From assembly GCA_947629745.1 (NCBI GenBank), contig CANREZ010000001.1:15300-79299 (forward strand): a stretch of 64,000 nucleotides of DNA. The letters run 5' to 3'. This DNA is from an uncultured Clostridia bacterium (lineage in GTDB: Bacteria > Bacillota > Clostridia > Christensenellales > UBA1242). This document shows positions 50,644 to 62,365 of the stretch, one piece after another. Position 1 is the first letter of the stretch; every line of letters begins with the position of its first letter. Under the pieces are notes generated by a model. That model did not search any database and was not told where the DNA came from. It was given only the letters and a program-made list of their open reading frames with translations. The translations under genes were made by a program, and so were the position numbers.

Positions 50644-51120
50644 TTAGAGGGTATCGAGTTGATAGCAAGAAAGATAAAAGCTTGCTCAATCCCCTCAGAT
50701 TGCATACGCAATCAGCTCCCCCTACTACGGGGCGCCTAAATGAGGTTATAAGCAGATAGGATAAAGATATACAAATATAAATATAAATATAATTTTAACC
50801 GATATATATTTGTCTTTTAATCAGCAGATGATAAAAAATTAGATTTATTATTGTTTCTTTCATTTTTATATTTAATATGACGACCTCATAAAGGCTCCCT
50901 TTAGTAAGGGGAGCTGGCGGAGACTTCCGCCTGAGGGGATTGAGCCGACTTACGTGCTTTCTTAGGTTCGCGCTCATGACCCACTTGTATAATTTCATAT
51001 TTATATAGGTTAAAATTAATTAAAATGAAGATATAGTATTAACTATTAACATAAAAGATAAAAATAAATTATTAACACAAGAAAATTTATTATAATCAAG
51101 GAGAGTGGCGTGCCACAAAA
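50644..51120 (-). repeat. Full-length ~470-nt composite element (copy D, inverted relative to copies F and G)
   Basis: The parts, in window order, are: an arm at 50644-50747 as reverse complement; an AT-rich core; an arm at 50881-50985; a conserved AT-rich module; and ATTATAA plus GTGGCGTGCCAC at 51089-51116. The 52-nt arm core 50685-50736 is the exact reverse complement of 62125-62176. Confidence 0.85.
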
Positions 51121-54562: not shown

Positions 54563-54923
54563 GTTCTTTCATGCAAATTATTTCAAGGTCCACAACCTGC
54601 GACTCTGTGCCATCCACGAATATTACTTTAGTAGGATAGACCAAGTGGAGCAAAATTTTGATGTCGACCAAGCAATAGGACTTATCAACGAGATTATCGG
54701 AAAATTTGGCACAACTATCGAGCAAGTGGGCAAACTGCAAGCAAGTTATGTCATAATACACTCAGAGGATATCAAGCGAGATCTCTATGACGCAAAGACC
54801 GAACAAGATATCCTAGACGACCTAGAGTATATGCGAGACTGCGTCTTAGTCGATGCTCTAGTCCGCGCCGGGCATTACCCTTCTGTCCCCGCCGTCATCC
54901 GCGCCATGAATAAGAAGGTATAA
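54555..54923 (+). CDS. Hypothetical protein overlapping the queH 3' end
   Basis: 122 aa. Its start overlaps the queH stop region and a terminator follows. Confidence 0.5.
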   Translation: MSEFFHANYFKVHNLRLCAIHEYYFSRIDQVEQNFDVDQAIGLINEIIGKFGTTIEQVGKLQASYVIIHSEDIKRDLYDAKTEQDILDDLEYMRDCVLVDALVRAGHYPSVPAVIRAMNKKV

Positions 54924-54924
54924 A

Positions 54925-54954
54925 AAGAACTCTCATATTCGAGAGCTCTTTTTT
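54925..54954 (+). terminator. Intrinsic terminator
   Basis: An AGAACTCTC...GAGAGCTCT stem is followed by TTTTTT. Confidence 0.7.
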
Positions 54955-55046
54955 ATTTATAATCAATTATTATCTGTTGTTTTAAATTAGCTATTATCTA
55001 TTGTTATATTTATTTTATGTTGTTTTATTTCTCTACTACTCTATCC

Positions 55047-55280
55047 TTATTCCTTCCCGTTACCTTCGCCCAGTTTGTCAAACTCCTCAGCTATTCTCAT
55101 AATCTCTTTCTGATCCGTTAGGAAGTGGACTTTGTTATTTTCGACATACGCCATCTCTAGGTCCATGGTCTTTATATCATAAAGCACTAAGTATTCTAGA
55201 TTCTTTGGTCCTAACTTTGCTGTACGTTGCACAGTATAGTAGTTGCCTTCTTTTGTCTTGATTACATCATTTATTTCCAT
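55047..55280 (-). CDS. Small acidic protein (possibly DUF1292-like)
   Basis: 77 aa. It lies 14 nt downstream of the 55295..56179 gene, so it is probably co-transcribed. Confidence 0.45.
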   Translation of the reverse strand: MEINDVIKTKEGNYYTVQRTAKLGPKNLEYLVLYDIKTMDLEMAYVENNKVHFLTDQKEIMRIAEEFDKLGEGNGKE

Positions 55281-55294
55281 TTTTATTCTCTCCT

Positions 55295-56179
55295 CTATTC
55301 TCTCTCACTCTCAACCTTTCCATCGCGCTGTGCTTCAAGTTTCTCTACTTCAGCTTTTATTTGATCAAAGACTACCTCGAATGCTTCATCTTTAAGTTCA
55401 TTATGTTTTTTATTGTTTTTTATATTTCTAACAACATCTATACCCGAAGATATCAAATACATTACGATTGAAGTTATTGCAACCAAACCAAAAGCTGAAA
55501 TGAAAAAATTTACAGCCTCTCTACCAAGATCTGGCCATAATAGTGACACAACAGTAGGAATAGGAATTAAACCCATCATCCCAAGAGTGAGTGCACGAGT
55601 AGCATTTGAAGGATGTAATATAGACCTATCATGTGAGAATTTATCTAGCACATGCAACGCATTACCATCACTGTGGCGTTGCAGTAAATTCCTAATTGCT
55701 TGGCTTACGATCTCCGGATCATGTAACTCGATGATTTCATCTATTTCTTCATTAGCTTTTTTACTACGTTCTTTACCGATACTTTTCTTGCTAAATGCTG
55801 CGGCAACATTATGATTAATAAGTTTCTTTGTAGATTCATTCAATTTAGCTTGTTCCAATGTAATTGTTAAATTAATAATATCTTCAGTCGAAGGTGGCAT
55901 ACCCCATCTGTCAATGAGCGGGTTGTCATTCATAAATTCTGTCATCCCCTCACTTAATAAAACAACAGCATCCGTTCGTGCTATTTTATCGTAATTTTTA
56001 CTTTTGATTTTACTTTCTACAGTATCAATTGTTTCGGTCCTTCTGCGTTTTTGTGCAAGTAACATTTCATTATACAGTCTCTTTAACTTTATCTCCTTGT
56101 AATTCTCTGCAAGATCACTGTATTTTGATAGCCTCTTTACTGCAATATCTGGTGATACTTTTAGGACATTTTCATCCAT
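55295..56179 (-). CDS. Hypothetical membrane protein (two C-terminal TM helices)
   Basis: The start is set at the ATG at 56179, which lies 7 nt after GGGAGGAAG. The ORF track begins 5 codons earlier, at 56194. Confidence 0.55.
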   Translation of the reverse strand: MDENVLKVSPDIAVKRLSKYSDLAENYKEIKLKRLYNEMLLAQKRRRTETIDTVESKIKSKNYDKIARTDAVVLLSEGMTEFMNDNPLIDRWGMPPSTEDIINLTITLEQAKLNESTKKLINHNVAAAFSKKSIGKERSKKANEEIDEIIELHDPEIVSQAIRNLLQRHSDGNALHVLDKFSHDRSILHPSNATRALTLGMMGLIPIPTVVSLLWPDLGREAVNFFISAFGLVAITSIVMYLISSGIDVVRNIKNNKKHNELKDEAFEVVFDQIKAEVEKLEAQRDGKVESERE

Positions 56180-56237
56180 ATCTCTTCCTCCCATTACTTA
56201 TACTTTTCTTTTAGCGTATCATGCTATACTTACCTAA

Positions 56238-56268
56238 AATATATCACCCCCCCCCCCAGAAAAGTCAA
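56238..56268 (-). promoter_or_regulatory. Promoter with a G11 homopolymer inside the -35/-10 spacer
   Basis: On the minus strand: TTGACT (56268-56263); a 19-nt spacer TTTCT-G11-TGA; then TATATT (56243-56238). The TGA provides an extended -10 TG. Confidence 0.55.
56247..56257. repeat. Homopolymeric C11 (G11 on the minus strand) tract
   Basis: This is a direct count in the sequence. I saw no other long G/C homopolymer in this AT-rich window. Confidence 0.95.
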
Positions 56269-56343
56269 CATAAAAATAAAAAACTTTCAAATTTTGGTAA
56301 ATTTTACTAATTTTATCTAAAATACATATAAAACAACAATTGT

Positions 56344-56532
56344 AGAGTGCAGTACACTACTTTCCCAGTTCTAATCAATTGTATCTTGTGTTGATGCTGT
56401 AATTCTATTTTTATCCTAATTATTTAGTGGGTCATGAGCGCGAACCTAAGTGGGTACGTAAGCCGCCTCAATCCCCTCAGGCGGTGATAAACACCGCCAG
56501 CTCCCCTTACTAAAAGGGAGCCTTATGAGGTT
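56344..56532 (+). repeat. Truncated composite element (copy E): hairpin/TTCTAAT module + AT-rich module + one arm
   Basis: The arm at 56426-56532 reads AGTGGGTCATGAGCGCGAACCTAAG...CTCAATCCCCTCAG-GCGGTGATAAACACCGC-CAGCTCCCCTTACTAAAAGGGAGCC. It ends about 100 nt before the vanW start. Confidence 0.85.
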
Positions 56533-56632
56533 TTATCTTCATTTGAGCACATAAGTGCCACACAATCCTATCTCAATCCTTTACATAAATAGTTCTCATT
56601 TACACATAATAAATGTAATTTTAGAGGGTATT

Positions 56633-58039: not shown

Positions 58040-58107
58040 GTGACATGTCACGGTCCTAGACTATAAGAAAACTTTATATATAGTCAGTATACGTGAATTA
58101 AAAGATA

Positions 58108-58580
58108 CCCCCAATCCGGCGTCAGCCACTTTCCTCGTTATAATCAGTAACATCTTGTATTAATAATTTATTTTTATCTTTTATGTTAATATTTGTTATT
58201 CTAATATTTCATCCTTTATTTATTTTATTATTTAGCAGGTCATGAGCGTGAACCTAAGTAAGCCCGTAAGTCGGCTCAATCCCCTCAGTCGGTGATAAAC
58301 ACCGCCAGCTCCCCTTACTAAAAGGTAGCCTTTATGAGGTCGTTATATTAAATATAAAAATGAAATAAACAATAATCAATTTAATTTTTGTATCATTGAC
58401 CTTATAAGAGAATGATAAGAATTTGTTGTAATTATATTTTTTATTAAGTAATTAATTTTTCCCTATTTATTTTAACCTTATTTAGGCGCCCCGTAGTAGG
58501 GGGAGCTGCCACCGATTAGGTGGCTGAGGGGATTGAGCGGGCTCTTCATCCAACTTTGCTACCAACTTCACACCCACTAA
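58108..58580 (+). repeat. Full-length ~470-nt composite element (copy F)
   Basis: The parts are: a hairpin/TTATAAT module at 58108-58147; a conserved AT-rich module; an arm at 58234-58342 as reverse complement; an AT-rich core at 58343-58481; and an arm at 58482-58580. Confidence 0.85.
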
Positions 58581-58660
58581 AAATAATATCAGTATACTAT
58601 ATTATCAACCCACGAATTATTCCATGTCACTTTATACCCTACTCAGAATTTATATATTTA

Positions 58661-58689
58661 TTGACAAAGTAACTTAATATAGATACAAT
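58661..58689 (+). promoter_or_regulatory. Near-consensus promoter abutting the LRR lipoprotein start codon
   Basis: TTGACA, a 17-nt spacer, then TACAAT. The -10 ends 6 nt before the ATG at 58696 and there is no Shine-Dalgarno sequence. Confidence 0.5.
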
Positions 58690-58695
58690 GTAGGT

Positions 58696-60750
58696 ATGAA
58701 GAAGAAATGGTATACATTAATAGTAGCAATGGTGGCATTTTTGCTGCCAATTTTTACTTTGGTTGCATGTGGAGACAAACCTAATACTCCACCAAAAGAC
58801 CCAAGTGGTGACCCACCACCAGTCACGAGCACAAGTTTTCACAACATATATAGTGATAAGAAATCTATATTAGAGCAATTCTATGGCAATGAGACGAACA
58901 CTATACTTGCAGCAAATGCTCTAGGTGAAGATGGTGAGCCAAGTAATGACTCTACAGAGGAGGAAAACACCCCAAGTGAGGAGACATCATCAAATCCTGA
59001 GGAGAATAATCCAAGTGAAGAGAATCCGACTAATCCTGAGGAAAATACTGAGGAGGGTGAGGAGAATCCCGATGGCAATCCTGAGACTGACCCAAACGAG
59101 GGTGACGACGGGAATGACACACTCGATGACCTAGAACAACCTGAGGATGATTACTCCGAACCGGGTATCACTTTCTCATATTACTGCCACGAAGATGCAA
59201 ATGAAGTACTTAGCAAATATCTAATCAATCCTGACAACGTCTACTCCTGCATCACCTACAATGATGAACTAGTGTGTGTGGAATTTTACAATGACATATC
59301 CATGCAGGAATTAGTGGCTCTTAGGAAAAACCTCGAGGAATGTTATCAATTCTACAACGCAAGGAAAGACCATGGTGAAAATTTCGCTAATTACACAGAG
59401 GACTATTTCCGCCCAGGGTTATTCTACTATATTAATCACCTAGCCTTCATCAACGAAGTGCCAATCAGTGCAATACTTGGTGATGAAATAGAAAAAGACG
59501 GCCCATGCTATATCGCTAAGAAATCTCACACCCTTTTGAAATTCGTAGACGATAGATACGTCCCAGAAGATTTTGACTGGACGAATGACGAATTAAGACA
59601 CGAGACATTTGGAGGCTCTTACACCCTCCCTGAGGGAATAGAAACCATTGCCTCACAAGCCCTTGTATGTGGTGACTTTTATTATGAAAAATTGATACTC
59701 CCAAGCACAGTTAGAGTGATTGAAGATCATGCTCTATATGTGCCAGATATAGAGTTAAACGATGGACTGGAATTCATCGGCGACTATGGGATAGAGGGCC
59801 TGTCTCATACACCTCAGATCCCATCCAGTGTCACATATATTGGCGCATACGGAATATTTAATCGCGCTGAATTTTATGGGATAAATCAAGACTCATTCTA
59901 TATCGTGGATAATTGGATCTTATATAGTAAATTTGCATTAACTCCAAAGGCTTTACACATACCAGAAGGAATAGTAGGAATTGCTAAATTAAGTTTATTA
60001 AATTCCCCTACAAAATATTATATCCCAGAGAGCGTAGAATACATTTGTTACAATTTCGCAACTGGCACTGGACACATAGGATTATTCTTCGAAGCAGATA
60101 GCATGAAGGATGGTTGGACTGACGAATTGTTCGTTACTTCTTCCTTTAGAGATAATACGCGTAGATTGCATATATATTATAATTACACTGAGGCCGACGA
60201 AGAAGACTTCGAAAATGCATTAAATCGTGGTGGCAGGACTATTTGTGATGAGATGGATGAATACTACTGTTACGGACCAGAACACAACACTGACACACTA
60301 TATATCGATGCTGATGTAGAATTTATCGCCCAAGGTCTCTATTACACCGAAGTGGAGCAGATAATCGTTGACCCAGACAATCCATATTATTGCAGTGTGG
60401 ATGGCGTGATGTATTCCAAGGATATGAAGACTCTAATCTGCGTGCCATCTGCTCGCAAAAAGCCATACTCTATCCCTGAGACTGTGACAGGAATTTACAA
60501 CTTAGCACTAAATAACTTCTACGTTCATCAGAAATACATCTTCATTCCAAAAGAAGTGGTATCCTTTGGTTGGGGAATATTCTATTTCTGGGATACAACT
60601 TGCACAGTGTATTTTGAGACAAAAACTGTGAGCCCAAGTATATTGTTTAATGATATTGCATGGTCATGCTCCACAAATATGGAATTTGGCGTGACATATG
60701 AGGAATATTTGGAGGCAATCAACACTAAATACAATGCACAAATTGCATAG
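58696..60750 (+). CDS. Surface lipoprotein with an acidic Pro/Glu/Asn linker and BspA-type leucine-rich repeats
   Basis: It has a lipobox (LVACGD). LRR_5-like repeats recur: IPSSVTYIGAYGIF, IPEGIVGIAKLSL, IPESVEYICYNF and IPETVTGIYNLAL. Confidence 0.75.
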   Translation: MKKKWYTLIVAMVAFLLPIFTLVACGDKPNTPPKDPSGDPPPVTSTSFHNIYSDKKSILEQFYGNETNTILAANALGEDGEPSNDSTEEENTPSEETSSNPEENNPSEENPTNPEENTEEGEENPDGNPETDPNEGDDGNDTLDDLEQPEDDYSEPGITFSYYCHEDANEVLSKYLINPDNVYSCITYNDELVCVEFYNDISMQELVALRKNLEECYQFYNARKDHGENFANYTEDYFRPGLFYYINHLAFINEVPISAILGDEIEKDGPCYIAKKSHTLLKFVDDRYVPEDFDWTNDELRHETFGGSYTLPEGIETIASQALVCGDFYYEKLILPSTVRVIEDHALYVPDIELNDGLEFIGDYGIEGLSHTPQIPSSVTYIGAYGIFNRAEFYGINQDSFYIVDNWILYSKFALTPKALHIPEGIVGIAKLSLLNSPTKYYIPESVEYICYNFATGTGHIGLFFEADSMKDGWTDELFVTSSFRDNTRRLHIYYNYTEADEEDFENALNRGGRTICDEMDEYYCYGPEHNTDTLYIDADVEFIAQGLYYTEVEQIIVDPDNPYYCSVDGVMYSKDMKTLICVPSARKKPYSIPETVTGIYNLALNNFYVHQKYIFIPKEVVSFGWGIFYFWDTTCTVYFETKTVSPSILFNDIAWSCSTNMEFGVTYEEYLEAINTKYNAQIA

Positions 60751-61618: not shown

Positions 61619-61724
61619 ATTTTCCCCTCATCCTTATTGTATAACAAATAAATTTTTTGTCAAGATGTAATTTTTCGGGATAGGTGTAACTGCTTTTGTA
61701 AACCGAGCAAACATAAAAGTATTA

Positions 61725-62220
61725 AGTGGGTCATGAGCGTGAACCTAAGTAGGTCCGTAAGCCGGCTCAATGTGGCACGCCACTTTCCCAGTTATAATTA
61801 ATATATCTTGTATTAATAATTTATTTTTATCTTTTATGTTAATATTTCTTAATTCTAATATTTCATATTTATATCACTTTTTTAGTGGGTCATAAGCATG
61901 AACCTAAGTAGGTCCGTAAGCCGGCTCAATCCCCTCAGTCGGTGATAAACATCGCCAGCTCCCCCTACTACGGGGCGCCTCTAAGCGGTTGAATATAAAT
62001 AAAAATTAGGTCAAAAGAACTAATCAAAAAATATTGTAATTAGTAATGACTAAAAGAGTTTCAATTTAACTTTTATATATTTTATGTGGATATAACTTTT
62101 ATCTCTAAATAATAACCTCATTTAGGCGCCCCGTAGTAGGGGGAGCTGATTGCGTATGCAATCTGAGGGGATTGAGCGTGCCTTTTTACTATCTTATGTT
62201 CCAACTCCTCTACCCTCTAA
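61725..62220 (+). repeat. Composite element (copy G) preceded by a truncated arm fused to the GTGGCACGCCAC module
   Basis: The parts are: a truncated arm at 61725-61771; GTGGCACGCCAC-TTTCCCAG-TTATAAT at 61772-61798; an AT-rich module; an arm at 61884-61979 as reverse complement; a core; and an arm at 62121-62220. Confidence 0.85.
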
Positions 62221-62265: not shown

Positions 62266-62365
62266 AAAGGCCGCCCTTAGTAAGGGGGGCTGGCAACTTT
62301 CGTTGCCTGAGGGGATTGAGCCGGCTTTTTCTCTCTTGCTACCAACTCATGTACTCTCTATCTAT
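62266..62365 (+). repeat. Solo arm (tandem, same orientation as the 62121 arm)
   Basis: The sequence reads AAAGGCCGCCCTTAGTAAGGGGGGCTG-GCAACTTTCGTTGC-CTGAGGGGATTGAGCCGGC followed by a tail. Confidence 0.85.

Follow-up and report, generated by a model that had tools for sequence, protein, structure and literature searches.

Genes and features of the locus

The window, by which we mean the whole 64-kb stretch of DNA that was analysed, contains a run of 11 G residues on the minus strand upstream of a two-gene cassette (Table 1). The two genes, which encode proteins of 294 aa (56179..55295) and 77 aa (55280..55047), lie as they had been described in the original prediction. They are separated by a gap of 14 nt, and the 77-aa gene is probably part of the same operon. 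Neither open reading frame is disrupted, and the cassette has a strong ribosome-binding site and a terminator; the latter can serve both the cassette on the minus strand and the 122-aa gene on the plus strand.

Table 1. Features at and around the G11 tract, with positions in the window.
Feature	Position	Strand	Basis
-35 hexamer TTGACT (5/6 vs TTGACA)	56263..56268	minus	sequence, hexamer scan
TTTCT (5 nt) between -35 and G tract	56262-56258	minus	sequence
G11 homopolymer (C11 on plus strand), proposed length-variable part of spacer	56247..56257	minus	sequence, homopolymer census
TGA between G11 and -10	56246-56244	minus	sequence
19-nt promoter spacer, TTTCT-G11-TGA	56244..56262	minus	sequence, hexamer scan
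-10 hexamer TATATT (5/6)	56238..56243	minus	sequence, hexamer scan
Tract plus flanks, TGTTGACTTTTCT-G(n)-TGATATATTTTAGG			
A/T-rich stretch abutting -35 upstream, putatively UP-element-like	56269..56300	minus	read from sequence
Predicted 5' UTR	56180..56237	minus	sequence
Gene, 294-aa protein, all-helical in model	55295..56179	minus	ORF, predicted model
Gene, 77-aa protein, co-oriented	55047..55280	minus	ORF, predicted model
Hairpin terminator, A run and T run at its sides	54921..54950		sequence, standard scan
Apparent lineage-specific 1.7-kb insertion between 122-aa gene and VanW	54924..56632		synteny with L007/L008, GC
VanW promoter-like site TTGGTA-18-TAAAAT	56294-56323	plus	scans
VanW promoter-like site TTTACA-19-CATAAT	56580-56610	plus	scans
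Dispersed repeat, copy	56419-56530	plus	
Dispersed repeat, copy	58227-58340	plus	
Dispersed repeat, copy	61881-61990	plus	
Dispersed repeat, copy	50878-50985	minus	
Dispersed repeat, partial copy	61720-61771	plus	
Dispersed repeat, short pieces	near 62305, 62446, 62163, 58524, 50685, 33175		

The AlphaFold2 model of the 294-aa protein was all-helical, with a pLDDT of 59. Two hydrophobic segments, at residues ~196-216 and ~221-250, are joined by a loop of a few residues, and no signal peptide was detected by topology analysis. The protein is thus probably a two-segment membrane hairpin with both ends in the cytoplasm, a topology that leaves almost no exposed loop. Searches of Pfam, NCBIfam, and PADLOC yielded no match for it; PHROGs gave a marginal match only, to phrog_19792 (membrane protein; E 0.041). 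A protein search of 5.8 billion clusters returned only the protein itself, and a full HMMER search of 1.8 billion representatives recovered two remote homologues at ~30% identity. No homologue was found in phages or plasmids by tblastn or in a scan of IMG/VR, and the model had no fold match in the PDB with E < 1. The 77-aa protein was modelled as five strands and a C-terminal helix (pLDDT 78); it had no phage match, and its model no PDB match with E < 0.1.

Probable insertion of the cassette

The locus was compared with those of two relatives, L007 (Logan SRR9850976) and L008 (ENA ERZ17292905), in which VanW is 56% identical to that of the window. In both relatives the gene order is glycosyltransferase(-)-DinB-81aa-QueH-125aa-VanW, with VanW starting 5-73 nt past the 125-aa gene. 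The window keeps the same genes, but 1.7 kb (54924-56632) parts its 122-aa gene from VanW. Since DinB-81aa-QueH-125aa-VanW are directly adjacent in both relatives, we regard the cassette block as a lineage-specific insertion. Besides the cassette, this block contains the G11 promoter and a single copy of a dispersed repeat; its GC content is 0.34, compared with 0.41-0.46 for the flanking genes. The arrangement in the two relatives, together with this GC difference, suggests that the event was an insertion in the lineage of the window and not a loss in the relatives. The promoter lies within the insertion and thus belongs to lineage-specific accessory DNA; the cassette, as a lineage-specific, low-GC insertion, is accessory as well, and is of the gene type usually placed under contingency switches. 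Two loci from 'uncultured Clostridia' MAGs (L004 and L005; VanW ~40% identical) had only VanW in common with the window and were uninformative on the insertion.

Several observations concern the VanW side of the locus. VanW in the relatives, directly after the upstream gene, probably has no promoter of its own. In the window, scans located two plus-strand promoter-like sites ahead of VanW (Table 1), one of which, at 56294-56323, stands back to back with the G11 promoter, the two -35 boxes being 26 nt apart. This site would give VanW a leader of ~300 nt containing a copy of the dispersed repeat. Beyond VanW, the region 58040-60750 consists of a 650-nt intergenic region with a repeat copy, followed by a gene for a predicted lipoprotein of 684 aa, with a signal peptide ending LVACGD and an acidic low-complexity region encoded in part by a 39-nt tandem repeat (58960-59045, 2.2 copies). 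This gene is absent at the L007 and L008 loci, where other genes take its place, and the region looks like a second lineage-specific insertion.

The dispersed repeat is GC-rich and ~110 nt in length, and its copies in the window are 86-90% identical; besides the copy in the insertion, the window has at least three full ones and several fragments. Hairpins within it are conserved (e.g. GGCGGTG-ATAAA-CACCGCC and CTCCCC...GGGGAG), with compensatory changes at two base pairs among the four copies, and stable folding was predicted on both strands (z = -2.6 on the plus strand and -4.6 on the minus strand). The repeat had no Rfam match and was absent from the L007 and L008 loci and from IMG/VR. Its copies occupy intergenic stretches longer than their counterparts in L007 and L008, one of them within the 1.7-kb insertion. 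It could be a REP/MITE-like element or a new small RNA family.

Anatomy of the putative promoter

Upstream of the 294-aa gene, the minus-strand order and coordinates of the elements given in the original prediction (TTGACT, TTTCT, G11, TGA, TATATT) proved correct, as did the 19-nt spacer and the TG of an extended -10. The TG, at 56246-56245, occupies the extended -10 position, with one base between it and the -10 hexamer. The end of the -10 is followed after 58 nt by the ATG at 56179, itself preceded at a distance of 4 nt by a strong ribosome-binding site, GGGAGGAAG, at 56192-56184. Judging from these positions, transcription would be expected to start near 56231. The sequence around the -10, GGTGA-TATATT, is similar to that seen elsewhere in the window at sites resembling promoters, such as GGGTGA-TATAAT ahead of DinB.

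The length of the spacer on the minus strand equals 8 plus the number of G's, so the deviation in spacing is set by the tract. Apart from that spacing, 2 nt off the optimum, the elements of a strong promoter appear to be complete. The hexamers that span G11 are likely the promoter in use for the 294-aa gene; standard and custom scans found no rival good minus-strand promoter between this gene and ~56630, at the start of VanW. The standard scan accepts spacers of 16-18 nt only, and the G11 site is missing from its results for that reason. No known RNA was matched when the intergenic region was compared with Rfam. A tiny minus-strand open reading frame running across the tract (ATG at 56271, 13 codons), which lacks a ribosome-binding site, was judged to have arisen by chance.

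A remote homologue of the 294-aa protein, P0003 (269 aa), was found in a different context on L006, after glmS. Its promoter is TTGACA-16-TATAAT, with a spacer, ATGCGGCAGGAGGCGG, that is G-rich and not a homopolymer. The 294-aa family thus appears to use a promoter of this layout, and the P0003 promoter supports the assignment made in the window; its G-rich spacer also suggests a possible route by which a G tract could originate. P0003 (L006 407-1470) stands alone, with glmS on one side and a convergent gene on the other; the 77-aa partner is missing, and a consensus promoter and a terminator serve this gene by itself. It therefore appears that the family moves between intergenic sites as a self-contained unit of one or two genes. 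A likeness between the cassette terminator and the terminator that follows the L006 homologue was considered and rejected as not significant (BLAST E ~0.04-0.6).

Rarity of the tract and of the hexamer pair

In a homopolymer census, the C11 of the plus strand was the sole G/C homopolymer longer than 6 in the 64 kb, the next-longest in the window being single runs of 6. From the base frequencies of the window (G 0.18, C 0.22), ~0.003 G/C runs of at least 11 nt would be expected per window. The description of the surrounding DNA as AT-rich held only moderately (GC 40% in the window and 35% in the intergenic region).

A custom scan of both strands (128 kb) for hexamers matching at no fewer than 5 of 6 positions each, plus the TG, returned 14 pairs, among them TTTACA-17-TATAAT ahead of DinB, with GGGTGA right before the -10. 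Spacers of 17 nt formed the peak (7/14), which implies that the organism uses canonical SigA-type spacing with an extended -10; the 17-nt optimum invoked in the original prediction accordingly suits this window, being the commonest length among the 14 promoter-like pairs. The G11 site was the only 5/6+5/6+TG pair in the window with a spacer of 19 nt. The probability of such a pair falling by chance on the two sides of one particular 11-nt tract is, by our estimate, ~1e-3. A single tract in 64 kb gives no hint that repeat-controlled genes are spread across the genome.

Tract length in other contigs

Searches of JGI metagenomes gave 0 matches, both with the two flanks joined by a variable gap and with the downstream flank alone. 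Exact-protein look-ups led to three short ENA contigs of ~2x coverage, all 100% identical to the window, and thus of the same strain, none of which spans the G tract. One of them, L001, begins with the last four G's of the tract (GGGG) and then matches exactly; another, L002, begins 14 nt downstream of the tract. No further independent contig comes as far as the promoter from the side of the gene. The probability that two of two contigs would end within ~70 nt upstream of the gene by random breaks was estimated at a few percent. At ~2x coverage these breaks are suggestive only, and what they suggest is that sequencing or assembly is probably halted at the tract, either by homopolymer error or because its length is heterogeneous. 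The consensus figure of 11 G's may be off by 1-2. On the VanW side, the full VanW protein was on record from the window's own contig only, and a search with an N-terminal fragment of VanW returned no contig. The final 63 nt of L001 (1132-1194) are an inverted copy of window positions 55081-55143; this low-coverage SPAdes contig was probably folded back on itself during assembly.

A proposed spacer switch

From the layout of the sequence, we think it probable, though by no means assured, that G11 is the slipped-strand-variable, length-setting part of the spacer in a SigA-type extended -10 promoter that drives the inserted cassette. G/C homopolymers of at least ~8-9 nt are counted as hypermutable, and the tract at 56247-56257 has 11 G's; it lies between a -35 and a -10 that are suitably distant from a gene (TTGACT-19-TATATT, TG, 58 nt to the ATG). 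Under the proposed mechanism, a sigma-70/SigA-type promoter with an extended -10 would transcribe the genes for the 294-aa membrane-hairpin protein and the 77-aa protein, and slipped-strand mispairing at G11 would alter the spacer (8 + n). For the assembled allele, G11, with a spacer of 19 nt, the prediction is a weak or inactive promoter. Activity is predicted to be intermediate at G10 (18 nt), maximal at G9 (17 nt), and reduced again at G8 (16 nt). To our knowledge, G/C runs of such length slip at high rates during replication in every bacterium studied; some cells, a minority, would thus be expected to have a shortened tract and hence an active promoter. The outcome would be a switch or dimmer that is stochastic, reversible, and heritable. 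Some activity may persist at 19 nt owing to the extended -10, making the response graded instead of on/off, and the TG may make the promoter partly independent of -35 spacing, such that the effect of length is small. Variation in tract length and its effect on expression are both predictions from the sequence of a single assembled allele.

The promoter-spacer switch of the original prediction is thus partly supported, in that the anatomy of the site (the hexamers, the distance to the ribosome-binding site, and the tract) agrees with it. The accompanying analogy to surface antigens fared poorly, given how little loop would be exposed: the 294-aa product is predicted to be N-terminally cytoplasmic, hairpin-anchored, and minimally exposed, and it belongs to no known family. 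A stronger proposal would make this a true repeat-type contingency locus, in which the G tract stochastically switches a horizontally inserted, near-orphan module of two genes, the helical hairpin protein and its small beta-rich partner, that is costly when on and only intermittently useful, such as a new phage-exclusion, abortive-infection, or toxin/immunity pair; we consider that improbable.

Alternative explanations

The tract could instead be accidental and non-adaptive, a G-rich spacer expanded by slippage that has put the promoter out of register, leaving it decaying or silenced, and hypermutable without having been selected as a switch. The spacer of the P0003 homologue is already G-rich, the assembled allele sits 2 nt above the optimum, on the 'off' side, and the cassette is a near-orphan insertion without known function, all of which would be in keeping with such a history. 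So would the identity of the sequence in all four samples that contain it, although only the window's own contig spans the tract. Decay should, however, have eroded the other promoter elements, which are near consensus, and the cassette retains intact open reading frames, a strong ribosome-binding site, and a terminator; moreover, an unmaintained 11-nt G run in DNA of 35-40% GC should contract quickly. We therefore hold an accidental expansion to be rather doubtful.

Error in sequencing or assembly would have to take the form of a miscalled length, the true spacer being a stable 17-18 nt, or of a false join at poly-G. Homopolymers of 11 are error-prone on most platforms, and two low-coverage SPAdes contigs break at the tract. 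The tract is, however, internal to a contig of 222,597 bp, and its flanks both belong to one insertion bounded by the syntenic 122-aa gene and VanW. The -35 and -10 on either side of it fit as one promoter. A two-colour Illumina poly-G artefact was likewise rejected: the GGGG of L001 stands at the 5' end, unlike the 3'-end signature of such artefacts. The two flanks are thus unlikely to have been falsely joined, the count may be wrong by 1-2 G's, and we think an artefact improbable overall as the source of the apparent switch. The remaining alternative has the extended -10 drive the promoter irrespective of -35 spacing, with the tract as a rigid GC-rich spacer that influences open-complex formation, a protein site, a buffer between the divergent promoters of the cassette and VanW, or without any role. 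The TG is correctly placed for this, TRTG-type contexts recur at other promoter-like sites in the window, and a plus-strand promoter-like site (56294-56323) lies 26 nt from the -35. Yet a 5/6 -35 box exactly 19 nt off, together with a unique homopolymer, would then be coincidence; no binding-protein motif or partner was found, and the hexamers of the plus-strand promoter are not overlapped by the tract. There is, in our judgement, little chance that the tract is irrelevant to promoter strength in this way.

Comparison with known systems

A close precedent for the proposed spacer switch is porA of Neisseria meningitidis, in which a G homopolymer of ~9-11 nt between the -35 and -10 sets the spacer and slipped-strand mispairing shifts transcription from high to none (PMC7864442). 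In Treponema pallidum tp0126, the number of G's differs in vivo, from 7 to 11, even within an isolate, and for the poly-G between -35 and -10 of both tp0126 and porA, transcription is best at 17 nt (PMC7864442). The poly-C of N. meningitidis opc is grouped with porA as a close system. The present locus shares with porA the poly-G in a promoter spacer. It differs in that the porA product is a porin in the outer membrane of a Gram-negative pathogen, with variation and expression effects shown experimentally, whereas here the host is an uncultured Clostridia-like organism, the product is a predicted hairpin-anchored protein, and the locus is known from its sequence alone; in addition, the spacer of the reference allele exceeds the optimum by 2 nt and an extended -10 is present. 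The poly-G promoters of tp0126 (an OmpW homologue) and of the tpr genes are alike in the same respect, although they occur in a spirochaete with many poly-G-associated genes genome-wide, mostly for outer-membrane proteins, as opposed to one tract in 64 kb here, and there is no sequence homology between those loci and this one. As regards the length of the tract, its place between the two hexamers, and how far it lies from the gene, the locus appears to conform to the class represented by porA, tp0126, and vlp.

Repeats in promoter spacers also yield on/off or graded expression in Mycoplasma hyorhinis vlp, through poly(A), and in Haemophilus influenzae hifA/hifB, through (TA)n. The repeat units in these cases are A or TA, and the products are surface lipoproteins or fimbriae. 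At hif, two divergent promoters overlap and share the repeat. The present locus appears to resemble hif in having divergent promoters, but the repeat here is G, and the plus-strand promoter-like site excludes the tract.

In Clostridia and gut commensals, phase variation is known to proceed through invertible promoters, as reviewed in PMC11868660. Those of Clostridioides difficile and gut Bacteroidales have the same population-level outcome as the switch proposed here; they operate by site-specific inversion by a recombinase between inverted repeats, and no convincing inverted repeats flank the G11 promoter. The only inverted matches were of 12-13 nt, consisted of A/T only, and lay >800 nt apart, and no recombinase was present among the neighbouring genes examined (DinB, QueH, VanW); an inverton was rejected as an explanation.

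Implications

The mechanism proposed for this promoter is a textbook one; no principle would be added, and the gain would be a wider taxonomic range and a pointer to a single orphan module. If the tract varies in length, an uncultured Clostridia-like commensal would have a promoter switch driven by a repeat; the review cited above (PMC11868660) describes phase variation in Clostridia solely through DNA inversion. Variation of the tract would also mark the orphan cassette as worth expressing at random, and thus make it a candidate for a phage- or envelope-related function.
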